64,000 nt of DNA from an uncultured bacterium (lineage in GTDB: Bacteria > Omnitrophota > Omnitrophia > Omnitrophales > Danuiimicrobiaceae), in contig CAYJWM010000002.1 in the NCBI GenBank assembly GCA_964373885.1, positions 2,189 to 66,188 on the forward strand. The letters are read 5' to 3'. Of this stretch, positions 15,895 through 56,692 are shown in pieces (the stretch's first letter is position 1; the number at the start of each line of letters is the position of its first letter). The translations under genes and the position numbers were made by a program. The notes under the pieces were generated by a model. It saw nothing but the letters and a program-made list of their open reading frames with translations. It had not been told where the DNA came from and ran no database searches.

Positions 15895-15895
15895 A

Positions 15896-19829: not shown

Positions 19830-19859
19830 ACCCATGAGCAAGAAAGAGAGCGTTTTGAT

Positions 19860-20948
19860 ATGAACGTTTTATTGGTACGCACACACGATCCGGACCAGGA
19901 TTCCATATGGCCGGAAGTTGTGAGGGAACTTCGCGGGTTTGGAGTCCGCGCTCGGGCAGTCTGGGATTCGATTCCACACCTAAAACATCGCTTGTGGGCA
20001 CTCGGACGGCCGACCTATGTCATTGCCTTGAAGCCGATAAGGCGATTTGCGCCTTGGTGGGCCGAAAGATTGCAACAGGTGAGATGTGACAAAATTCAGG
20101 AATATGAATTGCTCGATCGCTCAGGCATTCCGGTTCCGAGATGGATCGCCATTCATCAAGGGGATGTGCCCAACCTTTCCGGGTTCGGTGATTTTGTGGT
20201 TACGAAGCCCGCGGCAGGATGCCGTGGGGCATTTGTGCGCGTGATGCGCCGCGGCCGGGTGCGGTGGCGATATTTCAACCTAGAACATAGAAGGGGAGAA
20301 AGTACGGCGATCGTCGTTCAGGAATATATTTATACGGGGTCAAGACCTGTGAGTTATCGCGTTGCCACATGTTTTGGAGAACCTTATTACGCCTGGAGGA
20401 CAACCGCAGCCGCCTCCCGATTACGATTTGAGGAAGGCCTTAAAGGAGCACATTTTTTTGCCGGAAAGAGCATCGTTTCCACCGGGGAAGGTTGCACCAT
20501 GGATCCGGAAGTTCCGTCAGACGTCATTCAATTCGGGACGCGGGTCCATGAAGCTTTTCCGGATATCCCGCTTCTTTCCATCGATATTATTCGTGACGGC
20601 CGTTCCGGCGCACTTTACGTGCTCGAGTTGAACACTGCCGGATTGATTATGGTCGCGACACCACAAAGTATGAGCCGGATCAAACACGATTTTGGCTTTG
20701 ATCCCTGCGTGCAGTTCGGAGGAGCAAAAGCGGTTGCACGCGGAATTTATAACCGGGTCAAGGGACGGCCCTTCGGGCCGCCACCTGCCCGCGGCACGGC
20801 TGCGCCGCCGCGGGCAGGTACTGCTCCGGCTCCCCCGGGCAAGCCCGGGGCATCCTCCGCTGTCAATCGAATGAGCTCAAAGGACTCTGAGCGCGGCGGA
20901 TCCGTTCGGGATTTAAATACAGTATTAGAGGAAGCTTTGGTTCCATGA
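19860..20948 (+). CDS. ATP-grasp family ligase, paralogue 3 (more divergent, with repeat-derived C-terminal tail)
   Basis: MNVLLVRTHD start. Motifs: FVVTKPAAGCRGAFV, VVQEYI, LLSIDII...ALYVLELNTAG. The last roughly 60 aa (PPARGTAAPPRAGTAPAPPGKPG...) are encoded by palindromic repeats. Confidence 0.65.
   Translation: MNVLLVRTHDPDQDSIWPEVVRELRGFGVRARAVWDSIPHLKHRLWALGRPTYVIALKPIRRFAPWWAERLQQVRCDKIQEYELLDRSGIPVPRWIAIHQGDVPNLSGFGDFVVTKPAAGCRGAFVRVMRRGRVRWRYFNLEHRRGESTAIVVQEYIYTGSRPVSYRVATCFGEPYYAWRTTAAASRLRFEEGLKGAHFFAGKSIVSTGEGCTMDPEVPSDVIQFGTRVHEAFPDIPLLSIDIIRDGRSGALYVLELNTAGLIMVATPQSMSRIKHDFGFDPCVQFGGAKAVARGIYNRVKGRPFGPPPARGTAAPPRAGTAPAPPGKPGASSAVNRMSSKDSERGGSVRDLNTVLEEALVP
20783..20850. repeat. 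Two adjacent GC-rich palindromes (acctgcccgcgg family) inside the 3' end of ATP-grasp paralogue 3
   Basis: acctgcccgcgg-N13-ccgcgggcaggt (20783-20819, 12-bp stem) and ccccgggc-aa-gcccgggg (20833-20850). The loop of the first is the reverse complement of the loop at 31895-31909. Confidence 0.7.
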
Positions 20949-28002: not shown

Positions 28003-28988
28003 ATGAGAAACCCAAAAATGCCAAGGTGACCATCGCGGTGGTCCCGCGCGAACGATTCAGTTTGATGGAAACCGCGATCGAGCACATTTACGCGTTTACG
28101 CAGGAACCTTTCGACTTGATCGTGATCGACCCGAAAAGTCCTCCTTTTGTCGGTGAAAAGCTCAAGAAATGGGAAAAAAGAAATCCCAATTGCCGCGTGA
28201 TTCGTTCGGAGCGTTTTCTTTATCCGTATGAGGCGAAAAATCTTGCCGTCAAACACCTTAGTCCCGAAACGGAATGGGTGGTGTTTGTGGATAGCGACGT
28301 GAAGGTGAGTCCTCATTGGCTCAGCTGGTTTTTAAAAGCCGCCGAGGAAACCGGAGCGCGCGTCCTGCATCCGCTTTACTTAATTGAGCAGAAGAAAGAC
28401 ACGGCGATTCACATGGCGGACGGCGAGATGAAGGAATTTAAACGAAACGGAAATATCATCGTTCAGCCGGTCATGAATTATGTCGGCATGAATATTTGCA
28501 ATTCTGCTAATTTCGTAAGACAGAAAAGCGGTTTCCTTGAGTTTCACACCTTTATGGTTCATCGGGAGATACTCAAAGAGATGGGAGATTTCCAGCCGTT
28601 CACTTTAGCCGAAGACGTCAATTTCAGTCTACGGTTAAGGGAGAAGAATGAAAAAATCATTTTTGAGCCGCGCTCCGTGGTTACCTATGTGGCGGGGCCT
28701 CCTTTTGAATCGTACGATCTCCCTTATTTTAAATTCCGCTGGGACCCGAAAGTCGGGGCGGATTCCGTCAACCGGTTAAGCCGTCGCTGGCCGATTAAAG
28801 AGGCCTATTGGGCGGGAAAACTGGAATGGGCCCGTTTTCACCGGAGCCGGGTTTCTCCGTGGTTTGTTCCTTTGTCGTTCGGGAACCGTTTGCTTTCAAA
28901 ATTCCGCGCGGTCGGTTCCAAACTGAAAAACCGCGCCGCGCGGCTTGGATTTGCGGCCCGGCCGAAAGAGGAAGGAAACAATGCCTAA
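27999..28988 (+). CDS. GT-A fold (GT2-like) glycosyltransferase, copy a
   Basis: VTIAVVPRERF start and VFVDSDVKV DXD-like motif. Paralogue of 36597-37604. Confidence 0.6.
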   Translation: MNEKPKNAKVTIAVVPRERFSLMETAIEHIYAFTQEPFDLIVIDPKSPPFVGEKLKKWEKRNPNCRVIRSERFLYPYEAKNLAVKHLSPETEWVVFVDSDVKVSPHWLSWFLKAAEETGARVLHPLYLIEQKKDTAIHMADGEMKEFKRNGNIIVQPVMNYVGMNICNSANFVRQKSGFLEFHTFMVHREILKEMGDFQPFTLAEDVNFSLRLREKNEKIIFEPRSVVTYVAGPPFESYDLPYFKFRWDPKVGADSVNRLSRRWPIKEAYWAGKLEWARFHRSRVSPWFVPLSFGNRLLSKFRAVGSKLKNRAARLGFAARPKEEGNNA

Positions 28989-30030
28989 AGTAAGCGTGAT
29001 TCTCACAACTTATAACCGCACTCATCTGGTTGGAGAAGCCATTGAAAGTGTTTTGGCGCAAACCTATCAGGATTGGGAGCTTATTGTGATGGATGACGGT
29101 TCGGCGGATGGGACAGGGGATATCGTCAAAGCGTTTGCCCAAAAGGATTCCAGAGTCCGCTGTATTCATCGGGAAAATATGGGCATTTCAGCCGTGCGTG
29201 CGCGAAGCATCGCGTTTGCCGAAGGGGAGTATATTACTTTTCTTGACGATGATGACGAATTTGCGCCGGACAAACTGGAACGTCAGGTTTCATTTTTGGA
29301 CGCGCATCCGGAAGCCGGCTTGGTTTATTCGTATGTGGACATGATAGACGCAGAGAAGAAATTGATTCGGAAATGGCCATATCGAGCGGCGGAAAGTTTT
29401 GTGGCGCTGATTAAAGATTGCGTCATTCAGCCGAATGCAACGCTTGTGCGGATGGAGTGTTTCAAAAGACTCGGAACGTTTCGTTTGGATTTCAAAGGCG
29501 GCGATGATTATGAAATGTGGCTCAGGATCGCTAAATTTTACCCCATTGCTTTTTTGCCGTTTACGGCCGGAACTTATCGATGGCATACGTCAAACTTTTC
29601 TCATGATTGGAAGAAACGCTGTTTCAATGACGTGAACGTTTTTAAGGCGGTGCGCGCTTATGATTTATCCTGTGAAGAGCGCAAAGCGGTGACTCAGAGA
29701 GTGATTGAGCTGACGTACACGAAGGGCTCTGACGCGTTTTCCCGCGGGGATTATCGTGACGCTTTATTTTATTTCACCCAGGCGCTCAGGTTCGGCAAGA
29801 CCCTTGGAATTCATATTGCATGGGGACGTTCTAAAAATTGGTTTTATGGGTTGCTGCGGCCGTATGTCGCTTTGGTGCTGGCAGCGGTACTGTTTCCATT
29901 GCGGGGGTCATCCCCGAAATCTTTTATCGGCGATCCCCGATTACCCCGCAAGGGGGCTGCTTCGCTGAAACATTCGGGGACGACGCCTGTCCCGGCCGGA
30001 AATGGTACCGAAGGCGTGCAAAATGCCTAA
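28981..30030 (+). CDS. Glycosyltransferase family 2 with helical-repeat tail, paralogue a
   Basis: Start at ATG 28981 (MPKVSVILTTYNR). Motifs WELIVMDDGSADGT and FLDDDDEF. The last roughly 40 aa are encoded by a 78-nt repeat. Confidence 0.85.
   Translation: MPKVSVILTTYNRTHLVGEAIESVLAQTYQDWELIVMDDGSADGTGDIVKAFAQKDSRVRCIHRENMGISAVRARSIAFAEGEYITFLDDDDEFAPDKLERQVSFLDAHPEAGLVYSYVDMIDAEKKLIRKWPYRAAESFVALIKDCVIQPNATLVRMECFKRLGTFRLDFKGGDDYEMWLRIAKFYPIAFLPFTAGTYRWHTSNFSHDWKKRCFNDVNVFKAVRAYDLSCEERKAVTQRVIELTYTKGSDAFSRGDYRDALFYFTQALRFGKTLGIHIAWGRSKNWFYGLLRPYVALVLAAVLFPLRGSSPKSFIGDPRLPRKGAASLKHSGTTPVPAGNGTEGVQNA
29907..29984 (+). repeat. 78-nt REP/MITE-like structured repeat, copy 1 (in frame in the GT2 3' end)
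   Basis: Matches 54808-54885 at 68 of 78 positions by hand alignment, in the same orientation. Terminal inverted repeats are gtcatccccgaaat / cattcggggacgac, and there are internal hairpins. Confidence 0.8.
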
Positions 30031-30940
30031 GCTTAGCGTTGTCATTTGCACCTATAACCGGGCCGAAAGTTTGTGGGACACGCTTCAGGCGCTTAAGAAC
30101 CAGCGCATCCCCGATGGTTTGGATTGTGAAATTATCGTGGTGGACAACAACAGTAGGGATCGGACAAAAGAGATCGCTTGTCAAGAAAGCCGCGAAAGTC
30201 CGTGGCCAATTCGTTATGTTTTTGAACCCGATCAGGGGGTCAGCCATGCGCGCAATCGCGGAATTTTAGAAGCCAAGGGAGACTTAATCGCGTTTGCGGA
30301 TGACGATATGATTCCCGAGCCGAATTGGATGGATTCGCTTTTAAGGGGTTTTGAGGAGTTTCGCGCCGACTGTGTCGGCGGTCCGGTTCTTCCAATTTGG
30401 GCTCAAGAACCTCCGGCGTGGTTGAGCGATCCAAAACTGAGATTCGGAATGCTCGCGCTCTTGGATCGGGGGGACAAACCGATTGTTGCTGCTAAGACAG
30501 ATTCCAACATCGTATTTGGTGGAAACTCCGCGTATCGGAAATCGCTTTTTCAAGAAGTAGGTTTGTTCCGCACGGATTTGGGCCGCAGGGGCAAAACGCT
30601 CTCGTGCGGTGAGGACAGCGAAATGATCAGGCGCATCATTCATTTGAAAAAGCACGTGGTTTACCTTCCGGGTGCCATCGTGAGACATAAAGTGATGCCC
30701 GAGAGAATGAGTTTAAATTACCTCCGGAAGTGGCATTTCGACGGTGCGCGGTCCACCGCCCGGCTTTCCAAGTTCCGCCGCGGAATTGTTTTGGAACTGA
30801 TTTTGGAATGCGTCAAAAGCGGGTCTGCCGCTTTGATGCGTTACGCATGTTTTGACCGGTTGCGGGCGGTGGGAGCGGAGATTAATTTTTGGTGGAAGCT
30901 GGGAATGCTTGTGGAAATGGTGAATCATGCCAAAAGTTAG
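30023..30940 (+). CDS. Glycosyltransferase family 2 (short type), copy a
   Basis: Start at ATG 30023 (MPKLSVVICTYNR). Motifs IIVVDNNSRDRT and FADDDMIP. Paralogue of 35623-36600. Confidence 0.85.
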   Translation: MPKLSVVICTYNRAESLWDTLQALKNQRIPDGLDCEIIVVDNNSRDRTKEIACQESRESPWPIRYVFEPDQGVSHARNRGILEAKGDLIAFADDDMIPEPNWMDSLLRGFEEFRADCVGGPVLPIWAQEPPAWLSDPKLRFGMLALLDRGDKPIVAAKTDSNIVFGGNSAYRKSLFQEVGLFRTDLGRRGKTLSCGEDSEMIRRIIHLKKHVVYLPGAIVRHKVMPERMSLNYLRKWHFDGARSTARLSKFRRGIVLELILECVKSGSAALMRYACFDRLRAVGAEINFWWKLGMLVEMVNHAKS

Positions 30941-33900
30941 CATTGTGATGCCCACGTACAACCGGGCGGACTATTTAAAGGAAGCCATTGAGTGCGTTCT
31001 CGCTCAGACGTTTACCGATTGGGAGCTTTTTGTGGTGGATGACGGCTCTACGGATCAAACGGAAGAGTTGGTACGTGCGCACGCTTTAAAAGACGAGCGG
31101 ATTTCTTACCTGAAACAGGCCAATGCCGGTTGCAGTGTCGCCCGGAATACGGGACTTCGCCATGCACGTGGGCTGTATGTCGCTTTTCTGGATGATGATG
31201 ACCGCTGGCTTCCGGAAAAGCTTGAAGTTCAAGCGGCTTATTTGGACTCGCGTCCGGAAATCGGATTTTGCTACACGCGCTTTCAAATTTTCCGTTTGGA
31301 AAATGGAAAACGGGTGCTTACAAAAACGTTTCCCGAGTTTCTCACCACGAAGTTTGAGGAGATTCCAGACGTATTTATTGTGCCTTCCACGGTGATGATG
31401 CACAAGCCGCATTTTGACGCCCTGGGCGGATTTAATCCGCGTTACCGGTATGCGGAGGATTTTGATCTATGGCTTCGGTACGCTCAGCGGTGGCAGATTG
31501 GGCCGATTGACCGTGCTTTAGTTTTTACCGTGATGGACAACCGAGAGCACGGAGGGCGCGATCAGATTCTGGTTAATGAAGCTACAAGCGCTATTTTAAA
31601 GAATCTCGAATTGACGCCCCGGTATCGAAATTGTAAGCGGTTGATCCGCGAGGAAATTGCGATCCGCCGTTATGATTCGGGCCGCGAGTACTTGGGTCGG
31701 GCTGACTATTGGCAGGCGCTTAAGTATTTTGCCATGGCTCTTTTCACCGATCCGTTGGTAGGGATTTTCGCCCACCGTCCCGGCGAACCCAGAACGCCCC
31801 GGCGCCGCGGGATGGAATGGGTGCGGCATTTTGGAAAAGCTTATGCGGCTATTTTGGTTTGCGCGCGGAAAGGATTATTCAATACCTGCCCGTGGCGGCG
31901 CAGCCGTGTCACGGGCAGGTGGCAGCGAAGCGAAGCGCAGCCGTCCCTTGACTTAATGGACTTGGCTGTCTTTGGCGGCAAGCCCGCTTTTGGCGAGCCG
32001 CTTCATGTGGGTTGCCCAAACATCGGAGCGCGGAATCGTTTGCAAAACCGGATGGATGACATTTTGAATCGGCGGTGGCTTACCAACAACGGGTGTTATG
32101 TGCGAGAGTTCGAGCAGAGGATTTGTGACGTTCTCGGCGTGAAACACTGCATCGCCATCTGTAATGGCACGGTCGCATTGGAAATCGCAATCCGCGCCTT
32201 GGGTTTGGTGGGAGAAGTAATTGTTCCTTCGTTTACAGCTCCGGCAACCGTTCACGCCCTTTCATGGCTCGGGATTAAACCCGTCTTTTGTGACATTGAT
32301 CCGGAAACGCTTTGTCTAGATCCAAAAGCGGCGGAGAAAAAAATTACTTCAAAGACCACCGGCATTCTTGCGGTTCATTTGTTTGGCAGGCCTTGCGATG
32401 TGAAAGCGCTTGAGGAAATAAGCGCAGCCGGAGGGCTTAAGCTTCTTTATGACTCTGCCCATGCGTTCGGTTGTTCCGTAGGAGGGCGGATGATCGGCAA
32501 TTTCGGCAATGCCGAAGTGTTCAGCTTTCATGCGACCAAGTTCTTAAATGCATTTGAAGGCGGCGCTGTGGTGACGAATGATGATTCGCTGGCCGAGCGG
32601 CTCCGGTTGATGCGTAATTTCGGCTATACCGACTCGGACAAAATTGAGTCTTTCGGAACCAATGGAAAGATGAGCGAGATTTCGGCGGCCATGGGCATTA
32701 CCTCTTTAGAGTCTATGGATGAGTTCGTCAGAAGCAATCGCCTGAATTTCCAATTATATCAAGAAGGATTGGAAGGGATCCCGGGCATTGCGCTGATGCC
32801 GTATGATTTGACCGAAAAGAACAATTTTCAATATGTCGTACTGGATGTCGATGAGGAAGCCGCCAGGATCAGCCGTGATGCACTGATTCAGGTTTTGCGG
32901 CAGGAAAATGTGCTTGCGCGCCGTTATTTTCACCCCGGATGTCACAGAATGCGGCCTTATCTTTCGGTCGAACACTCCGCATCGCTTCCCATCACGGAAC
33001 GCGTTTCGGAGCGTCTTTTACAGCTGCCGACAGGAACTTCAATAGGCCCATCGGAAATTAAAACCGTCTGCGAGATCATCAAAACCGCAGTGGAAGGAGC
33101 CGAGGAAATCTGTGCTCATTTGGAGAGGAAAGCCCGTGTTTTGTCTCAGGCAAATGGGGAACAAAAGACATATCCCGCAGTCAGCATCATTATCCCGACT
33201 TATAACCGCCCGAGTTATCTGGCCAAAGCGATTGAAAGTATCAGGGATCAAACCTACAAAGATTGGGAACTGATCGTGGTCGATGACGGCTCTGTGACCG
33301 GCGACATTAAAACGGTTGTCGAACACTACGCCGAGCAGGATGATCGCATTCGATATATTCGGCGGCCCAATGGGAGCTGGTATCGCGCGAGAAATACAGG
33401 GATTCGAAACGCAAGGGGCAAATATATTGCTTTTTTGGATGATGACGATTACTGGCTGAAAGAAAAACTTGAAAAGCAAGTCGCTTTTATGGACGCTCAC
33501 CCGGAAATTGGGATCAACTATACCTTGTTTCAGGTATATCGATCCCGCAATGGTCGATCGGAACCTGCGAAGGTTTTCCCAAGATGCTCCGTCGCAGGGA
33601 TAGAAGGGTTTTTGGATGCTTTTGTGCCCATTTCCGCCGTGATGATTCGAAGAGCATGCCTGGATGGAATGAGGTGGTTTCCAGCCCGCTACCCGATTTC
33701 GGGAGATTTTGAGTTTTATCTCCGCTTTGCAAGGCACTGGCCCGTAGGTGGCATTGAAGAAATTTTAACGGCGACAACAATGGACGAGCGCGATCACGCC
33801 GGAAAAGACCTCGTTTTGGTCTACCACGATTCAGTGAAAGTGCTTAAGGACCTTAAGGGCACTCGTGATTTTAGCAAATGTCGGTGGCTTCTTACTTGGC

Positions 33901-34154
33901 ACATGGCCCTGCGCTACTATTTATTGGCACGGTTTTTTTTGGATCAAGGAAGCTACTGGAAGGCCGCCGAATATTTTTTGCACGCACTGTTGGCAAATCC
34001 TTTGGTTGGACTGGCGGTCCGCAGGCCCGAGGAAAAGGGGCTTAAGCTTGGGTTTCGAGTGGTCAAGGCTTATGCGGCCGTCTTAGTTTGCGCATGGAAA
34101 GGTTTTTTTTGTTCAGGACGCCATATTTTTCCGGCGGCGGGAGTCAATCAATGA
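30927..34154 (+). CDS. Tri-domain fusion: GT2 - DegT/DnrJ/EryC1-type PLP aminotransferase - GT2
   Basis: Uninterrupted 1075-codon ORF. GT2-A: MPKVSIVMPTYNR, VVDDGSTD, FLDDDDRW. Aminotransferase from about 31956: GTVALEIA, FSFHATK (PLP lysine). GT2-B from about 33170: VSIIIPTYNR, VVDDGS, FLDDDDYW. There is no in-frame stop and no in-frame ATG at the second junction. Confidence 0.85.
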   Translation: MPKVSIVMPTYNRADYLKEAIECVLAQTFTDWELFVVDDGSTDQTEELVRAHALKDERISYLKQANAGCSVARNTGLRHARGLYVAFLDDDDRWLPEKLEVQAAYLDSRPEIGFCYTRFQIFRLENGKRVLTKTFPEFLTTKFEEIPDVFIVPSTVMMHKPHFDALGGFNPRYRYAEDFDLWLRYAQRWQIGPIDRALVFTVMDNREHGGRDQILVNEATSAILKNLELTPRYRNCKRLIREEIAIRRYDSGREYLGRADYWQALKYFAMALFTDPLVGIFAHRPGEPRTPRRRGMEWVRHFGKAYAAILVCARKGLFNTCPWRRSRVTGRWQRSEAQPSLDLMDLAVFGGKPAFGEPLHVGCPNIGARNRLQNRMDDILNRRWLTNNGCYVREFEQRICDVLGVKHCIAICNGTVALEIAIRALGLVGEVIVPSFTAPATVHALSWLGIKPVFCDIDPETLCLDPKAAEKKITSKTTGILAVHLFGRPCDVKALEEISAAGGLKLLYDSAHAFGCSVGGRMIGNFGNAEVFSFHATKFLNAFEGGAVVTNDDSLAERLRLMRNFGYTDSDKIESFGTNGKMSEISAAMGITSLESMDEFVRSNRLNFQLYQEGLEGIPGIALMPYDLTEKNNFQYVVLDVDEEAARISRDALIQVLRQENVLARRYFHPGCHRMRPYLSVEHSASLPITERVSERLLQLPTGTSIGPSEIKTVCEIIKTAVEGAEEICAHLERKARVLSQANGEQKTYPAVSIIIPTYNRPSYLAKAIESIRDQTYKDWELIVVDDGSVTGDIKTVVEHYAEQDDRIRYIRRPNGSWYRARNTGIRNARGKYIAFLDDDDYWLKEKLEKQVAFMDAHPEIGINYTLFQVYRSRNGRSEPAKVFPRCSVAGIEGFLDAFVPISAVMIRRACLDGMRWFPARYPISGDFEFYLRFARHWPVGGIEEILTATTMDERDHAGKDLVLVYHDSVKVLKDLKGTRDFSKCRWLLTWHMALRYYLLARFFLDQGSYWKAAEYFLHALLANPLVGLAVRRPEEKGLKLGFRVVKAYAAVLVCAWKGFFCSGRHIFPAAGVNQ
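31884..31920. repeat. acctgcccgtg hairpin repeat forming the linker between GT2-A and the aminotransferase domain
   Basis: acctgcccgtg-N15-cacgggcaggt (11-bp stem). The loop gcggcgcagccgtg is the reverse complement of the loop of the 20783 element, so this is the same family in opposite orientation. Confidence 0.7.
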
Positions 34155-35620
34155 AGGGCTCACTTAAGGAAAAAGCGGTGTCGGGAGTCAAGTGGCAGGT
34201 GGTGAGTAACGCCATACAGAAAGTCATATCCATCGGGACGTTCGCGGTTTTGGCCAGGATTCTGGAGCCCTCCGCGTTCGGACTGTTTGCCATGGCGTTT
34301 ATCGTTATTGACGGTTTTCACACCCTGAAATCATTCGGATTTGATTCGGCGCTCATTCAGAGGAATCGGGATGTGGAGACGGCAAAGCACACGTCGTTCT
34401 TCGTCATTCTGATTTCAGGAACGTTCATGTTCCTGCTTTGTTACGGCATCGCTCCGTGGGCTTCTTATTTTTTTAAATCGCCCGAGCTTACCCCTGTGTT
34501 GCGTGCGCTTGCCCTCATTTTTGTGATCAACGGATGCGCGCGCATTCCTTTGACGCTGCTTCAAAAGAAAATGAGTTTCCGGTCTATTTCGTTGATCGAA
34601 CTCATCGGTGCGCTGGCCAATGGGTTGATCGCCGTGGGCCTGGCGCTTGCGACATCAAGCGTATGGAGCTTGGTTTGGGCTTATGTGATCAAACAAGCGG
34701 TGATGTGCGCTTTGAGTTTCCTTTTTTCAGGATACCGGGCTGCTCCGGTCTTTGACCGGAAAATTGCGCGCGAGTTGTTTGACTTCGGCAAGTATATTTT
34801 CGGTCTCAAATGTCTGCGGTATCTGAGTATTAATGTGAGCAACGTAGCGGTTGGGAGGATGCTGGGAGCGGCCCAGTTGGGTTATTTTGCCCTGGCCGCC
34901 AACGCCGGCATGTTGATTCATACCCATTTTACCACCCTGATCCTGGAAGTCATGTTTCCCGCTTTTTCGACCATTCAGAACGATAAAGAATTTCTCAAGC
35001 GCGCGTATTTAAAAACGATCAAATTTATTTCCATGTTGTCCATTCCTTTTAGTGTCGCTCTGATCTGTTTGGCGGAAGAATTTGTCCTGACCCTGTACGG
35101 GCCTAAGTGGTTGGGGATTGCGCCTTTGATCAAACTGTATGGGGTGGTGCAGTTGATTTATCCAATTGCCCGCTGTTCCGATGAGGTGTTTACAGGATGC
35201 GGGAGATCCAATTATGTTTTTCGGTTGACGTGTCTTTCGGTGTTCGTCAAGCTCCCGCTTCTTTTTGTGTTCACCCAATGGTGGGGCCTCGCGGGGGTGA
35301 TGTGGTCCATCATCATCGCGACGGCCATTGTGGATCCTTTGAGCATTATCTTAGCCCAGAAAGTCGTTGCCTTTAGCTGGCGCGAGTTTTTTGAAGGGCT
35401 TATTCCGTCTTTTACCTGTTCCCTTGTGATGTTGGCAGTCCTTTCGGCAGTCAAAAGCATTTTGTTTTCCGGAGATTCTTTTTTTGTGGTTCATTCATTC
35501 TTGCGGCTGGGTGTTTTGTCGGCGGCAGGGATGTTAAGTTATGCCATGACTTTTTTCTTCCTCGACCGCTCTTCCACGATGGAAGTGAAACGCATGATTT
35601 TCAATCTGGAGAAGGTGTGA
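34151..35620 (+). CDS. Wzx-type polysaccharide flippase (MOP superfamily), copy B
   Basis: Start at ATG 34151 (ATGA overlap). MKGSLKEKAVSGVKWQVV... aligns by eye along its length with copy A. Confidence 0.8.
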   Translation: MKGSLKEKAVSGVKWQVVSNAIQKVISIGTFAVLARILEPSAFGLFAMAFIVIDGFHTLKSFGFDSALIQRNRDVETAKHTSFFVILISGTFMFLLCYGIAPWASYFFKSPELTPVLRALALIFVINGCARIPLTLLQKKMSFRSISLIELIGALANGLIAVGLALATSSVWSLVWAYVIKQAVMCALSFLFSGYRAAPVFDRKIARELFDFGKYIFGLKCLRYLSINVSNVAVGRMLGAAQLGYFALAANAGMLIHTHFTTLILEVMFPAFSTIQNDKEFLKRAYLKTIKFISMLSIPFSVALICLAEEFVLTLYGPKWLGIAPLIKLYGVVQLIYPIARCSDEVFTGCGRSNYVFRLTCLSVFVKLPLLFVFTQWWGLAGVMWSIIIATAIVDPLSIILAQKVVAFSWREFFEGLIPSFTCSLVMLAVLSAVKSILFSGDSFFVVHSFLRLGVLSAAGMLSYAMTFFFLDRSSTMEVKRMIFNLEKV

Positions 35621-35622
35621 GC

Positions 35623-36600
35623 ATGGACGTCAGCGTGATCGTTTCCACTTACAACCGTGCGGACAGTCTGCGGGATGCGATTGAAAGTCTCGCCGCTCAG
35701 CAGGCCGGCAATTGTTCTTACGAAATTATTGTGGTGGACAATAATTCAAGCGACCAGACCAAAAGGGTGGTGGCCACGTTCAACGGAAAAGTACGTTACC
35801 TTTTTGAGCCCAAGCAGGGTTTGTCGTATGCGCGCAACGCCGGGATTCAGCAGGCCAAAGGGCAGGTGATCGCGTTTACGGATGACGATTGTGTAGCGGA
35901 CCCGAATTGGGTGGCTTCGCTTTGGGCCTGTTTCCGGGAGACGCGCGCGCTCGCGGTAGGCGGGAAAATCGAACGTCTGTGGCATTGCGAGCGGCCCGAT
36001 TGGCTTACCGACGAACTTTTGGGACCTTTGATTGTGCAGGATCTGGGCCCCAAGCGCAAGATTTGGGACGCAAAAAACCGGCATATGATCGGCGCCAATA
36101 TGGCATTCCACCGTTCTATTTTCGAACGCTTCGGGTTATTCAAAGAGGAATTGGGCCGGAAAGGGGATTTACTGATCGGCGGGGAAGACCGGGAAATATT
36201 CCGGCGGTTGTTTGAAAGCGGCGCGCCGATTTTTTATGAACCGAAGGCGGTCATCCATCATAAGGTTGAGGAAGCGCGCCTAACGAAATCTTATATGAGG
36301 CAGTGGTTTTGGGACATCGGCAAAACGCTTGGCCATCAAATGCCTTGGCGCTGGTCCCGTCTCTTCAGCGTGGCGCCGATTTGGGTTTGGAAGAATTTCG
36401 TCTGCACTCTGGTGAGATTTTTTAGATCGCGGTCCCGGTTTGAGACCACAGAGGCCGTTCAATTTTCAAGCGAGGTATGGACACTGCACTATGCAGCTAT
36501 GATTTCTGAAACATTTGCGCACTGGCTTCCGTTTGGATTCGGAAGAAAGTGGTGCGCATTTAGAGCACCTAATAAAATCAAAGGAGAAAACAAACAATGA
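35623..36600 (+). CDS. Glycosyltransferase family 2 (short type), copy b
   Basis: MDVSVIVSTYNRADSL, IIVVDNNSSDQT, FTDDDCVA. Paralogue of 30023-30940. Confidence 0.85.
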   Translation: MDVSVIVSTYNRADSLRDAIESLAAQQAGNCSYEIIVVDNNSSDQTKRVVATFNGKVRYLFEPKQGLSYARNAGIQQAKGQVIAFTDDDCVADPNWVASLWACFRETRALAVGGKIERLWHCERPDWLTDELLGPLIVQDLGPKRKIWDAKNRHMIGANMAFHRSIFERFGLFKEELGRKGDLLIGGEDREIFRRLFESGAPIFYEPKAVIHHKVEEARLTKSYMRQWFWDIGKTLGHQMPWRWSRLFSVAPIWVWKNFVCTLVRFFRSRSRFETTEAVQFSSEVWTLHYAAMISETFAHWLPFGFGRKWCAFRAPNKIKGENKQ

Positions 36601-37604
36601 ACACACAAACAAATCAACCCACTGTGACGGTGGTGATCGTACCGAGGGAAAGTTTTAACATGTTCGTGGATGTGGCCAAGCGGATTTACGATGTGACGTC
36701 ACCCATCTTCAACATGTTGATGATGGAGGGTCATGCGCCCGCCAATCGCAGAAAAGACCTTGAAGATTTTGCCTCGAGCCATCCGAACTGCAAAATCATC
36801 TATTCCAATCGCTGGAAATATCCGCATGAAATGGTCAATGACGCGATCCCTTTGATTGACACCAAGTACGCGGTGTTTATCGACAATGATGTGGAAGTAT
36901 TGGAAGGTTGGCTTGAGCATTTGGTGAAAACGGCGGAAGAGAAAAATGCGCACTGCGTTCACCCGATTTACCTCACGGTGAAACTGACAGACCCTTCCCG
37001 GAAAATCCATATCGCCGAGGGAAAATTTTACAAAGAGAAACGCGGGGACAAATGGTTTATCGATACGGTGGCCTGTTATTCGGGCACCCGCCTTGAAGAT
37101 TATCCCGGCAAGGAAGCCAAAGAAAGCGACTTCTTTGAATGGCACACCGTGATGTTCAGTAAGGAGCTTTTGGACAAAGTAGGCCTTCTTGACGATTTGA
37201 ATGTGGCCGAGCACTTGGATTATGCGCTTCGCATTCATCAGGCGGGCTACAAAATTTGGCTGGAACCCAAAGCGGTTGTGGCGTACGACTACGGCCGCAT
37301 CTGGGAGCTTCGCGGGGCGGACCGGGAGTATCTGATTTGGCGATGGGATGTGAACAGGGCCGGCAAATCGCATGAACGCGTATGCCAGAAATGGAATTTG
37401 GATCCGGAGTGCACCTTGCGCCGGCAGCATTTTGTAAAGGAGCATAGCGCGAAGATGCGCAGCATGAGATTGATGCCGAGAATCGTCAATAAGCTGCGCC
37501 GGACGATCGGGCTTGGAAATATACCGATCAATGTCGGGCCCAAACCCGAGACGGTATCGCAGAAAGCGCAGGATGAGCATCTGGCTTCGGTGCATAAAGG
37601 TTAA
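36597..37604 (+). CDS. GT-A fold (GT2-like) glycosyltransferase, copy b
   Basis: VTVVIVPRESF and VFIDNDVEV. Paralogue of 27999-28988. ATGA overlap with the upstream gene. Confidence 0.6.
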   Translation: MNTQTNQPTVTVVIVPRESFNMFVDVAKRIYDVTSPIFNMLMMEGHAPANRRKDLEDFASSHPNCKIIYSNRWKYPHEMVNDAIPLIDTKYAVFIDNDVEVLEGWLEHLVKTAEEKNAHCVHPIYLTVKLTDPSRKIHIAEGKFYKEKRGDKWFIDTVACYSGTRLEDYPGKEAKESDFFEWHTVMFSKELLDKVGLLDDLNVAEHLDYALRIHQAGYKIWLEPKAVVAYDYGRIWELRGADREYLIWRWDVNRAGKSHERVCQKWNLDPECTLRRQHFVKEHSAKMRSMRLMPRIVNKLRRTIGLGNIPINVGPKPETVSQKAQDEHLASVHKG

Positions 37605-39800
37605 ATGAAAAAGAAAATCTTAATTGCTGAATCGGGAAGCGGATACGGGGGTTCGGCCAAGTATTTGGCGAATCTTCTGCCGCTCATTGACCACAAGCGG
37701 TTTCAAATCGAGATCGCGGCCTACGGGAGCGGTCCATTTATTCAGCGAATTAAGGGCGAGGGGGCGCGGGTGCATTATTTTCCCAGGTGGCGGTTTCCGT
37801 GGAATTTTTTGGAGGGCTCCGGCCGTCCGCTCACAGGGAAAATAGCGTATCTGGTTTTTAGCTTGCTTCAGCTTGCGGTTTTAATTCCTTGGATTGCTTT
37901 TTGGCTCGCCAGAAAACGTTTTGAATTGATTCATATCAATAACGAAATCATCTCGCATTTCCCGCTTCTTTTGGCCGCCCGTTTGGCGTGCCTGAAGACG
38001 ATTTGTCACATGCACGGGTGGAGGCAGCTGACCGCCACGGAAAAATGGGCCAGCCGTTTTGTCGGCCAATTCGCCGCCGTGACTCAGTCCGGGGCTGATT
38101 TTTACAGCTGGCAGTTGAACGGGAGAAATGTGTTGGGAATTCCGAACGGCATTTCCCCGGATGAAGAGGGCTTGCTTGCGGCCCCAGACAGCCGCCGGAA
38201 TGAAACCCGAAAACAGCTCGGCATTTCAGAACGCGAGATTTTGGCCGTGATGGTGGGCAGATTGATTCCGTTGAAGGGGCATTTTGTTTTCTTTCAGGCG
38301 CTTGCGAAAGCCAGGAAAAATTTCCCCCTGTTGCGCGGTTTGGCGGTCGGAAATGATCCTTCGCCGAGGGGCGAATATCGGAAGAAATTGGATGAAGAAT
38401 TATCCGCGCTCGGAATTCAAGATCAGGTTCAATTTTTGTCCTGGCAGGACCATATGGGACCCATTTATGAAGCAAGCGACATCATTCTTCAGCCATCGGT
38501 TGATCCGGAATCATTCGGGTATGTGGCGCTTGAGGGAATGCTGGCCGGAAAGCCGGTGATCGCAAGCCGAATCGGCGGGCTCCGCGATGTGGTGAAGGAA
38601 GGTGAGACGGGGTTTTTGGTTGGGGCGGGGGACCCGGGGGAGCTCGAGTGCGCCATTTCGAGGATTGCCGGAGACCGGAACCTTGGTTTTCGATTGGGCG
38701 AGCAAGGCCGCGAGCGCGCCAAGACGGTGTTTACAATGGAACGCAACGCAGGACAAGTCATGGAATTGTACCGCACGCTCCTTGACGCTCCCCAAGAAAA
38801 CGGCCGTTTCAAAGCGAGACAATTTGCAAGCCGCATCGTGAAGGAAGTAATCGTGCGCTCCGGCTCCATTGAAGCGATACGTCAAACGGTAAGTTCCAAA
38901 GTCCCCATCTTGATGTATCACCGGATCTCAGCCGAGAAGGACCCTTTTTTTCCCGCCATTTCTTACGGCACTTTTTTGAGCCAGATGGAATATGTCAAAC
39001 GCCATTACCGCATTATTTCCATGGACCAATTGATGGACCGTTGGAAAGCCAAAGAGCCGGTTCCGCGCGGAAGCTTGGCGGTTACCTTTGATGACGGACA
39101 TGCGCCTACCTGGTTGCTGGCTTATCCCGTCCTTCAAAAATTGGAAATACCGGTGACCATGTTTTTGGCCACGAATACGCTTCGGGAAGGTGATTTTATC
39201 TGGACTGATCTTTTGCGCTGGTGGTTTAAATTGACTTCTCTAGATTCATACGCCGTTCAGCTGAACGGAACGTACGGGGAATGGAAATTGGACACCGCTT
39301 CCCGCCGGCTTACGGCCGCTTCCGAAGTTTCTGAAAAACTGAAGACTTTTCCAAACATCGAGCGCCGGCGGATCATGGAACAGCTTGGAAAAGAACTGGG
39401 GATCGGATACGCCGAACTTCCGCGTCATTGGTCGCTCACCCTTGAAAAAATCAATCACATCGGGAGAGGGGGCGTTCAATTCGGCGCGCACACGCAGACC
39501 CACCCCATTTTGACCAGAATTTCAGAAGAGGAAGCGAGGTCTGAAATTTTCGGATCCAAAAAAGAGCTGGAAGCTATTTTTCAGGAACCCGTCCGGCATT
39601 TCGCTTATCCGAACGGGGAAGCCGGCGATTTTGATGAGACGCATGAGCGGTTGATTGCCGAGGCCGGTTTTGATTCGGCTTCTTCCAGCATCCTGGGTCT
39701 TAATGACTCCGGCACGAATCCTTACGCCCTTCGCCGTGTTTATGCGGCCGAGGAGCCCATCGCTCGATTTGCCTGCCGCTTGGCGGGAGTGGGAAGTTGA
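37605..39800 (+). CDS. Fusion: GT4 glycosyltransferase + NodB-type polysaccharide deacetylase
   Basis: The N-terminal half carries ESFGYVALEGMLAGKPVIASRIGG (GT4). The C-terminal half carries ILMYHRI, VTFDDGH, AHTQTHP and FAYPNGE (CE4/NodB motifs). Confidence 0.8.
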   Translation: MKKKILIAESGSGYGGSAKYLANLLPLIDHKRFQIEIAAYGSGPFIQRIKGEGARVHYFPRWRFPWNFLEGSGRPLTGKIAYLVFSLLQLAVLIPWIAFWLARKRFELIHINNEIISHFPLLLAARLACLKTICHMHGWRQLTATEKWASRFVGQFAAVTQSGADFYSWQLNGRNVLGIPNGISPDEEGLLAAPDSRRNETRKQLGISEREILAVMVGRLIPLKGHFVFFQALAKARKNFPLLRGLAVGNDPSPRGEYRKKLDEELSALGIQDQVQFLSWQDHMGPIYEASDIILQPSVDPESFGYVALEGMLAGKPVIASRIGGLRDVVKEGETGFLVGAGDPGELECAISRIAGDRNLGFRLGEQGRERAKTVFTMERNAGQVMELYRTLLDAPQENGRFKARQFASRIVKEVIVRSGSIEAIRQTVSSKVPILMYHRISAEKDPFFPAISYGTFLSQMEYVKRHYRIISMDQLMDRWKAKEPVPRGSLAVTFDDGHAPTWLLAYPVLQKLEIPVTMFLATNTLREGDFIWTDLLRWWFKLTSLDSYAVQLNGTYGEWKLDTASRRLTAASEVSEKLKTFPNIERRRIMEQLGKELGIGYAELPRHWSLTLEKINHIGRGGVQFGAHTQTHPILTRISEEEARSEIFGSKKELEAIFQEPVRHFAYPNGEAGDFDETHERLIAEAGFDSASSSILGLNDSGTNPYALRRVYAAEEPIARFACRLAGVGS

Positions 39801-39801
39801 C

Positions 39802-40944
39802 ATGCTGAACATTGTGCGATTTTCTGATTTATCGGAATTGCAAGCCGTTAAAACCGAGTGGGAAGAGCTTCTTGCTCAATCGCCTCGTGCGTCTGTTTTC
39901 ATGACTTGGGAATGGCTTGTGACCTGGTGGGAAGTTTACGGCGGGGATCATGAGCTTTGGTGGCTTGTGGCCAGGAATGAGGGCGGAAAGGCGGTAGGCG
40001 GGGCGCCCTTTTATGTGAGAAAACATCAGAACGGGCTCGTGCTTCCGCACCGCGAACTCCGGTTTGTGGGGACGGGGGCTGCTGTGTCCCCCGAGCATTT
40101 GGACATAGTGGCCCTGGCGTCACATGCCGGCGAGGCGGTAAAAAGCTTTGCCCGATATTTAGCGGATCACTTTTCGAAATGGGATGTTTTGTCTTTGGCG
40201 GATATAAGCGATCCCTCGGCGCTTGCATTCCAACTTGCTCAGGAATTGCGAGAGAAAGGTGCGGGCGGATTAGCCGAAGAGCAAATTCCGGGCGCCTCTT
40301 ATGTTCCGCTTCCCGTCTCGTGGGAGGGTTATTTGAAATCGCTCGGAAAATGGATGAGGCGGGACATCATACGCGGGAGGAATAAATTAAACCGCGAGCA
40401 TCAAATTCGTTTCCATGTCTGGTCTCCGTCCGACGGATCGTTAGAGGATGCATTTCAAGAATTTCAAACGTTGTTTGCGGCCCGGAAGGAAAGCACTGGT
40501 TTTGGCAACAAATTTAAATCCGAGAACGGATATCAAAAATTTCACCGTCGCCTGGCCGAAAGATTTGCCGAGCGCGGATGGCTTTATTTGGTATTTTTAA
40601 GAATCCATGGAAAAGCAGTTGCAGCGGAATATACCTTCAAATATTTAAAATCACTTTATTCCTATCAAACCGGTTTCGACCCTGCTTTAGGGAAAGAAAA
40701 TGTCTTTAAGGTATTGAGGAGCTATGCGATCGAGGATGCCATCCGCCAAGGGCTCGTCAAATTCGATTTGCTGCGCGGCGGGGAGTCTTACAAGCAGGAT
40801 TGGAAGGCGATTCCCAGAAAAAAATACAAGCTCAAATATTTCAGCCCCACGTTTTACGGGCGGACATTGAATGGGGTTCTGCGTCTGCGCCGCTTCGGGG
40901 CTCAAACAGTCAGAAGGTTGGGGCTGGCCGCCCCAAAAGGGTAA
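39802..40944 (+). CDS. FemAB/CelD-like GNAT-fold acyltransferase (PEP-CTERM-locus femAB type)
   Basis: Start at ATG 39802. EWEELLAQSPRASVFMTWEWLVTWWEVYG is the CelD/BioF2-like N-terminal signature, and the C-terminal FDLLRGGESYK fits as well. Confidence 0.65.
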   Translation: MLNIVRFSDLSELQAVKTEWEELLAQSPRASVFMTWEWLVTWWEVYGGDHELWWLVARNEGGKAVGGAPFYVRKHQNGLVLPHRELRFVGTGAAVSPEHLDIVALASHAGEAVKSFARYLADHFSKWDVLSLADISDPSALAFQLAQELREKGAGGLAEEQIPGASYVPLPVSWEGYLKSLGKWMRRDIIRGRNKLNREHQIRFHVWSPSDGSLEDAFQEFQTLFAARKESTGFGNKFKSENGYQKFHRRLAERFAERGWLYLVFLRIHGKAVAAEYTFKYLKSLYSYQTGFDPALGKENVFKVLRSYAIEDAIRQGLVKFDLLRGGESYKQDWKAIPRKKYKLKYFSPTFYGRTLNGVLRLRRFGAQTVRRLGLAAPKG

Positions 40945-42473
40945 TGATGATGCAAGGAGCGTCCGGTTTTGCCGATTCACCTAAGCCAAAACAAAAAATG
41001 GGGGCCATTTTTTTGATGACCGTCATGGCGTTGGCCTTCAGCTATATTATTTTGAAAGATTTTATTTTTCCTTCTTGGCTGATGATCGCAGCGGTGATGG
41101 TAGGCGGCATGTGTTTGTTCGGAGCCGGCATCAATAAACCGGAAGTGATCATTTACGTGTTGGTGGCCTATTTGCCGTTCAGCAAGGTGCTCGCCGGCGA
41201 TTTCGGCGGGTTCGCCATGGCTTTGAATCTGACGAATTTGCTGATGCTTTTTATCTTTTTGGTATGGATGAGCGGAAAATTTTCCGCCGGCGAACCGCTT
41301 TGGCTTTCCACGCCTTTGAATTTGCCGATCGTTTTCTTTACCCTGGCGGGCTGCGTTTCCGTTATCCGGGGGAATTATTTCGGGTCTGATTATTTTTGGT
41401 TTGCAATCGTGGAATTCAAACGGTGGATCACGCCCATCCTTTTGTATTTTTTGGTGCTCAACACCGTCAAGGACCGCGGCACCATCCGGAATGTGGTGAC
41501 GATTATTATCATCGTTTCCACGGTCGTGGGGCTGATGGCGATTTATGATTACATAGAGGTGGGGGATGTCAGTTTGGAAAAAGCGCGCATCGGCGGCATC
41601 GCGGGGCATTCCAATTCGCTGGCCGCATTTTTCAATTACTATATTTTTCTTCCCCTCGGATTTTTCTTATTGAATGCCCATCGGTCCCGGTATTGGCTCC
41701 TGTGGGTGCCGTTTTTGATTCAATTCCGCGGCATTATGGTCACTTTTTCGCGCGGCGGTTATATCGCTTTCGCTTTCGGTCTGTATGCGATCGCCTTTTT
41801 CCGGCACAAAGCGCTTTTTACTGTGCTCTTGCTCGCCGCTTGTCTGGCGTTTCTGAACCCCATTTTTCTTCCGGCCGGTATCCGCTATCGAATGAGCCAA
41901 ACCTTTACCAAACCCGTCAATTACGCAGACGCGGTCGTGAGTCCCAACCAAACAGGTGAAGCCCTGGACGGAAGCGCCCGCGGCCGCATTGAAATTTGGA
42001 AGGGGGCGCTTCGGATGATTCAGGAACAGCCGGTGTTCGGGGTCGGGTACGGGCTTTTCTTTCCCTTGATTCGTTATTATTGGAAGGGCGGTTTTTCAAT
42101 TGATGCGCACAATACCTATTTGATCATTGCGGCTGAGATGGGGATACCGGCCCTGCTTATTTTTTTGCTCATTATTTTGATCGTGACGTGGAACACCTAT
42201 GTGCTGTATCGAAGGACCAAAGATTCGTTCACCAAGGGGCTTGCCCTCGGGTTTTTGGGCGGCCTTTTCGGATTGATGATGAGCAATATGTTCGGCTCGC
42301 GCCTGGATTCCCAGGAGGTATCCAGTTATTTTTGGATTTTATCCGCTTTGATCATGAGATTAAGGATTTTGGAAGCGAAAGAGGGGAATTTGGCCCTCGC
42401 AGGGGGACGTCCTAAAAAATTGGACGCCGTTTGGAACCGCGGGACAGAAATTCATGAGGCGATGCCATCATGA
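40944..42473 (+). CDS. O-antigen ligase/Wzy-like polymerase family membrane protein, copy a
   Basis: Start at ATG 40944 (TAATG overlap). Polytopic. Wzy_C-like motifs: MVTFSRGGYIAFAFGL and AHNTYLIIAAEMGIPAL. Confidence 0.75.
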   Translation: MMMQGASGFADSPKPKQKMGAIFLMTVMALAFSYIILKDFIFPSWLMIAAVMVGGMCLFGAGINKPEVIIYVLVAYLPFSKVLAGDFGGFAMALNLTNLLMLFIFLVWMSGKFSAGEPLWLSTPLNLPIVFFTLAGCVSVIRGNYFGSDYFWFAIVEFKRWITPILLYFLVLNTVKDRGTIRNVVTIIIIVSTVVGLMAIYDYIEVGDVSLEKARIGGIAGHSNSLAAFFNYYIFLPLGFFLLNAHRSRYWLLWVPFLIQFRGIMVTFSRGGYIAFAFGLYAIAFFRHKALFTVLLLAACLAFLNPIFLPAGIRYRMSQTFTKPVNYADAVVSPNQTGEALDGSARGRIEIWKGALRMIQEQPVFGVGYGLFFPLIRYYWKGGFSIDAHNTYLIIAAEMGIPALLIFLLIILIVTWNTYVLYRRTKDSFTKGLALGFLGGLFGLMMSNMFGSRLDSQEVSSYFWILSALIMRLRILEAKEGNLALAGGRPKKLDAVWNRGTEIHEAMPS

Positions 42474-54801: not shown

Positions 54802-54807
54802 CCCTAA

Positions 54808-54885
54808 GTCATCGCCGAAATCTTTAAGCGGGGATCCCCGACAATCCCACAAGGGGACTGCTTCGCTGAAACATTCGGGGATGAC
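54808..54885 (+). repeat. 78-nt REP/MITE-like structured repeat, copy 2 (between GT2 and exosortase; supplies ATG 54881)
   Basis: gtcatcgccgaaat...cattcggggatgac. Matches copy 1 (29907-29984) at 68 of 78 positions by hand alignment. Confidence 0.8.
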
Positions 54886-56303: not shown

Positions 56304-56621
56304 ATTCAGCGCAGACTCCAAGAAACGATTTATAGGGGCGGTTTGTCCGGGTCTGTCCGGTTATGACTATGCTTAACCGCGCTTGTCCCCATGTTTATTT
56401 TTTATTTGTGATGAAAAAAGAGCACATATTATTGCTCTCGTAAGTTACTGAATTCTCACGATTTATGTAATTAAAATATTTAGGAAGAATAGTGTTTATT
56501 TTTTAAGACGCAGGTCTACGCGATTAAAATTGTTTTTATTTGCTTCACAAAGTGAAGTTCGTAAGTTTAATGATTTCAATCACTTAAAGCATTTGCTTTT
56601 TTCCGGAACTTCAAGAAAAGT

Positions 56622-56637
56622 TGGCATGGAATCTGCA
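56622..56637 (+). promoter_or_regulatory. Candidate sigma-54 (-24/-12) promoter for the priming transferase / PEP-CTERM gene group
   Basis: TGGCAT-ggaat-CTGCA has GG and GC at the canonical spacing. It lies 56 nt upstream of ATG 56693 in a 389-bp AT-rich intergenic region. A sigma-54 activator is encoded at 62947. Confidence 0.5.
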
Positions 56638-56692
56638 GTAAGACGGGAGCGTGTTTTGTGTGTGCGCAAATCTTCATTGGGGAGGTTTTTAA

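Follow-up and report, generated by a model that had tools for sequence, protein, structure and literature searches.

In a 64-kb stretch of DNA from an uncultured bacterium, probably a member of Candidatus Omnitrophota (contig CAYJWM010000002.1; the whole stretch is called the window here), a single open reading frame (ORF) encodes two family-2 glycosyltransferases, GT2-A and GT2-B, with a DegT-type aminotransferase between them. We consider it likely that this ORF, part of an exopolysaccharide cluster of the exosortase-linked type, represents a real gene for a three-module enzyme and arose in two steps, namely by an old fusion of DegT with GT2-B and a recent joining of GT2-A through a small hairpin repeat element. 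An earlier note on this DNA took the three-module fusion to imply channelling of an amino-sugar donor. The architecture is not one designed unit: junction 2 (DegT/GT2-B) is old and shared with relatives, and junction 1 (GT2-A/DegT) is a recent, population-specific joint at which the element takes the place of the stop/start region between two genes; all relatives examined have these as distinct genes. The ORF is composed as follows.

30927-34154, forward strand: complete ORF of 1075 codons, stop included, in the order GT2-A, linker 1, DegT, linker 2, GT2-B (ORF list and Pfam; the same ORF is found in L001, L013, and P0430, described below).
30927-31883, forward strand: GT2-A module, codons 1-319, a family-2 glycosyltransferase of GT-A fold with a helical tail ending ...KAYAAILVCARKGLFN (PF00535; the end corresponds to that of stand-alone orthologues of 314-319 amino acids).
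31884-31952, forward strand: repeat copy A with the flanking pentamer TTGAC, encoding linker 1, TCPWRRSRVTGRWQRSEAQPSLD, at the position of the GT2-A stop and the DegT Shine-Dalgarno sequence and ATG of relatives.
31884-31920, forward strand: main hairpin of copy A with a stem of 11-13 bp, arms at 31884-31894 and 31910-31920, and the invariant loop GGCGGCGCAGCCGTG.
31956-33110, forward strand: DesI-like DegT sugar aminotransferase module dependent on pyridoxal phosphate (PLP), codons 344-728, from an in-frame ATG without a Shine-Dalgarno sequence (PF01041, TIGR04427, PDB 2PO3).
33111-33179, forward strand: linker 2, codons 729-751, the conserved DegT/GT2-B joint (same fusion in P0002, P0003, and P0004).
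33180-34154, forward strand: GT2-B module, codons 752-1075 plus stop, a paralogue of GT2-A (Pfam, alignment; best solved match 2Z86/2Z87).

The stretch of the fused protein named as the target for spanning peptides is TCPWRRSRVTGRWQR.

The ORF list and Pfam agreed on the single ORF and its three modules as previously described. On the 1075-residue protein, Pfam placed a GT2 domain at approximately residues 2-190, DegT_DnrJ_EryC1 at residues 371-718 (361.7 bits), and a second GT2 domain from residue 753. The DegT match (PF01041) covered profile positions 6-359/360 against a gathering cut-off of 19.8, and PF00535 exceeded its threshold with 271.6 bits in two separate stretches. Translation of both junctions in all frames revealed zero in-frame stops. 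Junction 1 contains an in-frame ATG (31956, codon 344). As the earlier note had stated, there is none at junction 2, where the ATG at 33154 lies in phase +1. Its further claim that GT2-B is not easily made alone held in part: the DegT-GT2-B fusion is conserved in orthologues, but junction 2 does carry in-frame alternative starts (GTG 33090, TTG 33120, and TTG 33141, the last 12 nt past GGAGAGG). Given these codons, internal starts at junction 2 would formally be possible.

The ORF is real and not an assembly artefact, since the same junctions occur in three further assemblies. L001 (Logan, ERR3478686) was 99.75% identical to window positions 29943-44154, with 36 single-nucleotide polymorphisms (SNPs) and zero gaps over 14.2 kb. 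It carries the same ORF with four SNPs inside, two of them synonymous, and none in either linker. L013 (CAMTXR010000027.1 of GCA_947085775.1) was 99.95% identical to the window, with four SNPs over 8.2 kb. The 90% protein cluster contained two more members from NCBI assemblies. P0430 (NCBI source, 69.5-kb contig) is identical to the window protein from codon 8 onward, and P0431, encoded on the L013 contig, differs from it by one residue; the database gene calls start at a Met seven codons downstream of the ORF start at 30927. Altogether, three haplotypes were found across the three further assemblies, all with identical junctions and an identical linker 1 and differing within the ORF by only two synonymous and two conservative changes.

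An error at junction 1, either a homopolymer indel or a chimeric join of the paralogous GT2 tails that conceals two real genes, is accordingly extremely improbable. The contigs of two relatives, L002 and L003, break exactly at junction 1, which hints at a region that is hard to assemble, and both other frames contain stops just upstream of ATG 31956. Yet the junction is identical in ERR3478686, GCA_947085775.1, and P0430, the difference from the relatives is a swap of 64 for 44 nt by a recognisable repeat rather than a 1-nt indel, and GT2-A and GT2-B, with only 44% identity at the protein level, are too diverged for repeat-induced mis-assembly.

Beyond the identical cluster, the best homologues of the protein have two modules in the order DegT-GT2, namely P0002 (78% identity, 755 amino acids), P0003 (59% identity, 744 amino acids; from the Candidatus Omnitrophica metagenome-assembled genome (MAG) GCA_016206945.1), and P0004 (57% identity). 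All three are true orthologues from syntenic clusters and keep the DegT/GT2-B joint. P0003 and P0004 have a Met directly ahead of the GT2 module (SPMVSIVTPTYNR), which is gone from the window and from P0002 and resembles a relict start codon from a time when GT2-B was a gene of its own. The two-module DegT-GT2-B gene is under purifying selection: between the window and L002, the ratio of nonsynonymous to synonymous substitution rates (dN/dS) was 0.18 over 722 codons and 0.19 over the 23 codons of linker 2. The synonymous divergence from L002 was unequal, with a dS of 0.44 for DegT (31956-33110) and of ~1.1 for GT2-B (33180-34151), whose tail is saturated. This difference is a hint that the fused gene may have a mosaic ancestry or have recombined internally.

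We also performed an exhaustive HMMER scan of 1.84 billion representative proteins and inspected the best 150 matches. Among these, no other GT2-DegT-GT2 protein was present; a second family with all three modules should outscore single-module matches in such a scan. The order found at junction 2, in contrast, recurred in unrelated lineages. Like P0005, P0025, and P0027, the proteins P0122, P0124, P0227, P0229, and P0248 are fusions of DegT with other GT2 subfamilies. This indicates that DegT-GT2 fusions arose independently several times and with different GT2 subfamilies. The scan also revealed several tandems of two DegT modules and one protein, P0127, in which a long coiled-coil linker connects GT2 to a following DegT; these suggest that N-terminal fusions to DegT are tolerated elsewhere. 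None of the uncharacterised DegT-GT2 proteins (P0002-P0005, P0027, P0122, P0124, P0227, P0229, P0248) has an N-terminal GT2-A, which the true relatives encode upstream as a gene of its own and in a different frame. Judged from these comparisons, junction 2 is old and shared with relatives, and the DegT-GT2 half of the protein is recurrent and hence not new.

At junction 1, the relatives have two genes. GT2-A is separate in every relative examined, and its close orthologues are all stand-alone proteins of 314-319 amino acids. In L002, the GT2-A frame ends with ...KAYAAIFVCAWKGLFNWNG and a stop (...KGLFNWNG), and DegT then follows in the +1 frame. In L003, GT2-A ends with ...VVKGLIHAWR and a stop that is overlapped by the DegT ATG. 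The P0004 contig encodes a GT2 of 314 amino acids at 2949-3893 and DegT from 3880 in the +1 frame, with an overlap of 14 nt; in L003 and the P0004 contig, the overlap between the DegT ATG and the GT2-A stop amounts to 11-14 nt. The joint GAAAGGA-N7-ATG...TAG/TAA closes the GT2 gene in L003, L009, and L011, and the Lys-Gly codons (AAA GGA) of the GT2 tail double as the Shine-Dalgarno sequence for whichever gene comes next. This joint (L003 ~95-125, L009 ~7930-7960, L011 ~7925-7955; counterpart in the window, 31866-31883) is followed by different genes depending on the relative, much as one would expect of a portable coupling module used in cassette exchange.

In the window, the counterpart of the joint reads GAAAGGATTATTCAATA and runs straight into the 64-nt element. 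These 64 nt (31884-31947) stand in place of 44 unrelated nt in L002, which include the TGA stop. The net gain of 20 nt relative to L002 shifts the DegT offset from +1 to 0, and both the GT2-A stop and the DegT Shine-Dalgarno-ATG are gone. Copy A is followed by TTGAC in the window (...GTCCC-TTGAC-TTAATG) and the L002 counterpart of this pentamer is GTGAC. By these comparisons, junction 1 is recent and population-specific, unlike the old junction 2. We also considered the TAATG at 31953-31958 as a fossil stop/start overlap fused by a 1-nt indel. This explanation was rejected, as L002 keeps TTAATG and its GT2-A stop lies 47 nt upstream. A terminator and promoter scan of the 26-36 kb region found nothing above chance at either junction, and the junction hairpin has no U-tract.

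Two further syntenic clusters, L009 and L010, do not contain DegT. In L009, GT2-A is directly followed by an orthologue of the gene at 35617, and in L010, two tandem A/B-like GT2 genes precede a flippase. DegT-GT2-B thus acts like a cassette within a hot spot. Because it has been gained and lost among syntenic clusters, caution is needed in regarding the triple fusion as a long-selected design. In the Omnitrophica relative L003, a nucleotidyltransferase/HEPN pair resembling a toxin-antitoxin system (2489-3527) lies right after DegT-GT2-B, where the window has a flippase (34088-35620).

The element at junction 1 is a GC-rich palindrome of 64 nt (ACCTG...GTCCC) with a perfect hairpin of 11-13 bp. 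It recurs in the window with one extra hairpin:

20757-20861, reverse strand: repeat copy B, the full three-hairpin form of 105 nt, inserted in frame in the ATP-grasp-like gene 19860-20948.

Outside the window, two other genomes carry the element: a genome-collection scan yielded one true copy (L005:4475-4598, MAG contig CAYJTI010000028.1, 81% over 113 nt) and a metagenome scan another (L008:212-291, JGI Ga0080064_1000072), so that four copies with 81-89% identity are known in all. The L008 copy is a short two-hairpin form like the one at junction 1. In L005 and L008 alike, the repeat lies at the 3' end of an ORF, which runs into it in the ...ARGGAAVPR... frame. Across the four copies, 96% of the cells of the 13-bp stem were paired, compared with 31-40% in slid controls, and two compensatory pairs were present. 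On this basis, the element can be regarded as a true dispersed repeat. Matches in L006 and L007 from the genome-collection scan were discarded as chance similarity in coding DNA of high-GC actinobacteria, and an nhmmer profile of the element detected no copies beyond the known four in 167 kb of collected sequence. No family reached the gathering score in an Rfam scan of the whole window, and no terminal inverted repeats were recognised in the element copies. Five of the element's six frames are open, but shuffled sequences of equal composition matched this result (P = 0.43-0.52), and we rejected the stop-free frames as evidence for selection.

Copy B provided a direct view of an insertion. It represents an exact 105-nt, 35-codon in-frame block in gene 19860-20948, adding GRPFGPPPARGTAAPPRAGTAPAPPGKPGASSAVN to the product. 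The closest homologue of this product, P0379 (327 amino acids), is 93% identical on both sides and has exactly 35 residues fewer, and its DNA (L012) constitutes the empty site for the 105-nt block. GTCAA is present on both flanks of copy B, whereas the L012 empty site has a single GTAAA; in this one filled/empty pair, the flanks are a probable 5-bp target-site duplication. Read in the orientation of junction 1, the pentamer is TTGAC, the same that abuts copy A.

In-frame insertion of palindromic elements with the formation of translational fusions has been described for Rickettsia palindromic elements (RPEs) and other MITEs (miniature transposable elements with inverted repeats) (PMC10969869). 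Compared by description rather than by sequence, they share with the present element the nature of a short, palindromic, dispersed repeat, the in-frame position, a probable short target duplication, and the addition of a peptide to the host protein (PMC10969869). Our element differs in being GC-rich, in its length of ~100 nt instead of ~150 nt, in having no evident terminal inverted repeats, in its non-Rickettsia host, and in its number of four copies. Moreover, it welds two adjacent genes rather than splitting one.

From these data, we propose the following order of events. In an old first step, whose outcome is preserved in the orthologues, a DesI-like aminotransferase for nucleoside diphosphate (NDP)-4-keto sugars would have been fused to GT2-B. 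GT2-A would still have been separate at this stage, and its last codons (AAA GGA ...) would have provided the Shine-Dalgarno sequence of DegT, itself in the +1 frame. In the recent second step, whose outcome is visible in the window and whose course of events is inferred, the hairpin repeat would have landed at (G/T)TGAC, 5 nt before ATG 31956. Because the copy B pentamer TTGAC follows copy A and GTGAC is found in L002, the most likely point of entry of the element lies in the first codons of DegT. The stretch from GT2-A codon 319 to the second hairpin of the element is now missing, that is, the first hairpin and the ancestral stop/start region are absent. They may have been lost by a later deletion between similar end-points (CAAT/CAGT), or a short, L008-like form may have been inserted. 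Removal of the stop and the Shine-Dalgarno-ATG together with the frame shift would have brought DegT into the GT2-A frame. Ribosomes starting at 30927 would then have to read through and produce a polypeptide of ~120 kDa, in which an Arg-rich, element-encoded tether of 24 residues joins GT2-A to DegT-GT2-B.

The full ~120 kDa polypeptide is most likely the product, because ATG 31956 has no Shine-Dalgarno sequence, which most genes of the cluster do have, and lies within a stable predicted fold (-48.5 kcal/mol, z = -3.5). It is rather unlikely that two working enzymes persist, with DegT-GT2-B coming mostly from internal starts at ATG 31956 and the fusion being a tolerated by-product, or with the GT2-A activity being what matters in the long form. 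In line with such a view, the ATG is also present at this position in L002 (MNLAVFGG), DesI starts just six residues ahead of the equivalent DLAFFGG, and the 16-residue N-terminal extension lost here lies outside the conserved fold. Apart from the missing ribosome-binding site and the stable fold, however, L003 has Leu instead of Met at the position of codon 344, arguing against an ancestral start, and without a stop every ribosome coming from 30927 would make the fusion anyway.

The young age of the event, in turn, could point to a slightly harmful or inactivating lesion in the course of being lost, the DegT start having been destroyed by the element and the long protein being inactive or misfolded. 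The absence of DegT-GT2-B from L009 and L010 fits this idea as well, as a cassette that related clusters gain and lose may have a dispensable function. We nevertheless judge a lesion very unlikely: across 1075 codons, there is no stop, frameshift, or motif loss, the changes among the three haplotypes are the few synonymous and conservative ones given above, and the same element family resides in frame in another intact gene (19860-20948).

To return to the three-module enzyme that we favour, its DegT module aligned end to end with DesI, the dTDP-4-keto-6-deoxy-D-glucose 4-aminotransferase of Streptomyces venezuelae (PDB 2PO3; 403 bits, ~50% identity). The motif of the PLP Schiff-base lysine, SFHATK, and DSAHA, with the Asp that binds the pyridine nitrogen, are both present and aligned to identical motifs in DesI. 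TIGR04427 (DesI) was by far the best NCBIfam match, with 523.8-526.2 bits against an equivalog cut-off of 650. At the family level, the module is thus predicted to be an NDP-4-keto-6-deoxyhexose 4-aminotransferase. In contrast to DesI, it is placed between two glycosyltransferases in an exopolysaccharide locus and not in a macrolide deoxysugar pathway, and the window contains no genes of the RmlA/RmlB type.

The earlier note had described the two GT2 modules as paralogues of each other and of a neighbouring gene:

28981-30030, forward strand: stand-alone GT2 paralogue of modules A and B (31-33% identity).

The relationship was borne out by 44-45% identity between GT2-A and GT2-B, by 31-33% identity of each to the product of 28981-30030, and by the motifs TYNR, DDGS, and FLDDDD, which are invariant in all three. 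The nucleotide-binding DDGS and the metal-binding DxD (FLDDDD) are thereby kept in both modules. The helical tail that had been called common to the three proteins (YW.A..YF..AL..PLVG) is shared by GT2-A and GT2-B, but only partial in the 28981 paralogue (GKTLG). An AlphaFold2 model gave a predicted local distance difference test score (pLDDT) of 70-90 for residues 1-280 of GT2-A, which ends in a terminal helix (297-319), and of 85-95 for GT2-B with a long terminal helix (1039-1065). None of the named GT2 equivalogs TuaG, EpsE, WcaA, PglI, and ArnC reached its cut-off, the best being TuaG with 241 versus 400. Because all these scores fall below the cut-offs, no donor or acceptor specificity can be assigned to either GT2 module from the equivalog models.

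Going by family membership, the DegT module would make a donor of the NDP-4-amino-4,6-dideoxyhexose type, the two inverting GT-A transferases would add sugars to a lipid-linked repeat unit at the membrane, and dimerisation of DegT would gather four GT2 domains. One may imagine an adaptive assembly line in which the aminotransferase hands the amino-sugar nucleotide directly to the flanking transferases. The repeated DegT-GT2 fusions with different GT2 subfamilies favour functional coupling by Rosetta-stone logic, and all catalytic motifs are intact in the three modules. Substrate channelling of this kind would be pure inference, and we consider it unlikely. Junction 1 is element-made and confined to a nearly clonal population, so that no selection for the joint is demonstrable; the close syntenic relatives L009 and L010 have no DegT, and others keep GT2-A separate. 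The structural model provides no support for a tunnel or an interface. In addition, before 4-amino sugars are transferred, another enzyme usually N-acylates them, and the cluster does contain GNAT genes.

Several points weigh against our proposal of a real three-module enzyme of two-step origin. The ~120 kDa product is deduced from DNA only, and the in-frame ATG 31956 could still yield some separate DegT-GT2-B. The fusion is young and may be neutral or mildly deleterious rather than functional, because its carriers diverge by only 0.05-0.25% at the nucleotide level. Insertion followed by deletion and one-step insertion of a short form, for which the two-hairpin copy in L008 is an example, could each account for the event. 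The AlphaFold2 model of the whole protein (mean pLDDT 66.5, predicted template modelling score 0.39) is uninformative on the linkers, and its DegT part is poorly folded (pLDDT 25-55) because the alignment is shallow in that part. The substrate of the aminotransferase is uncertain, as the module is only DesI-like, with a score under the equivalog cut-off. Finally, no NDP-hexose 4,6-dehydratase or nucleotidyltransferase (RmlA/RmlB type) was found among the 43 annotated ORFs of the window. The sole short-chain dehydrogenase/reductase (7135-8094) is TviC/GalE-like and scored 170 with the RmlB model versus a cut-off of 365. The RmlA/RmlB-type genes could lie elsewhere in the genome.

A bolder extension of the two-step origin would place the hairpin repeat in a hitherto undescribed family of mobile elements from Omnitrophota-like bacteria, which preserve the frame (105 nt), can insert in coding DNA, and weld neighbouring genes into larger proteins with several enzyme activities. 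The GT2-DegT-GT2 protein would then be active and favoured, a DesI-like dimer holding four transferase domains at the membrane and building the amino sugar straight into the polymer. We regard this picture as doubtful.

The earlier note knew of no characterised example of the architecture, and likewise we found no enzyme with it in the searchable literature. With respect to characterised aminotransferase-GT2 fusions, nothing relevant emerged there except the DegT_DnrJ_EryC1 Pfam domain in GT2 chitin synthases of fungi, in which both domains are present in one polypeptide (PMC5122149). These enzymes are eukaryotic, integral to the membrane, processive, and of an unrelated GT2 subfamily, and the role of their DegT domain is uncharacterised (PMC5122149). 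The chondroitin polymerase of E. coli K4 (2Z86/2Z87), the best solved match to GT2-B, carries two GT2 domains of GT-A fold in one chain. It is, however, a processive co-polymerase without an aminotransferase module, and nothing points to processivity in the present case. In the 4-amino-arabinose pathway, the gene of the DegT-family aminotransferase ArnB (PmrH) lies directly upstream of that of ArnC (PmrF), a GT2 enzyme that moves the amino sugar, in formylated form, to a lipid carrier. DegT-GT2-B has the same gene order and functional logic, but ArnB and ArnC are separate proteins. The ArnB model scored 195 bits on the DegT module versus a cut-off of 631, and ArnC was not among the top GT2 matches.

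Taken alone, the architecture is only mildly new, as multi-domain glycosyltransferases are common and the DegT-GT2 half is already recurrent in databases. The unusual feature is a domain fusion whose origin is directly readable from an ancestral two-gene state, an element at the joint, and a second copy with its empty site. The gene would represent a concrete, datable case in which a small palindromic repeat created a 'Rosetta-stone' fusion in an uncultured phylum. It also offers a natural pair of fused (window) and split (L002, L003, P0004 contig) forms for testing a kinetic or assembly benefit of tethering in polysaccharide synthesis.

The surrounding DNA is a co-directional exopolysaccharide locus of the exosortase type that covers ~60 kb of the window. 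It encodes export and chain-length functions, GlmS, a nucleotide-sugar dehydrogenase, many GT2 and GT4 enzymes, and deacetylases. The exosortase EpsH (54794-55711), an EpsI-family DUF3485 protein, and the priming transferase Bac_transf (56693-57448) mark, by predicted function, a PEP-CTERM/exosortase-type exopolysaccharide system (54794-57448). Wzx-type flippases are encoded twice (24920, 34088), as are Wzy-like proteins (40800, 48153), possibly for two repeat units or polymers. Three consecutive asparagine-synthase-like genes (12104-17842) and three consecutive ATP-grasp-like paralogues (17746-20948), followed by a GNAT gene, suggest that the polymer carries an amide-linked or amino-acid decoration.

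Domain fusions are common in this cluster. Other multi-domain proteins of the locus are a GT4-polysaccharide deacetylase (37605-39800), a double GT4 of 785 amino acids (42470-44827), and a PcRGLX-like/GH127-like protein of 1100 amino acids (49526-52828). Of the 36 SNPs that distinguish L001 from the window, 14 are crowded into 46 nt (40227-40272) of the Acetyltransf_6 gene at 39655-40944. This clustering suggests that a short tract has recombined or that the patch is hypervariable, within 14 kb of otherwise 99.75% identity.

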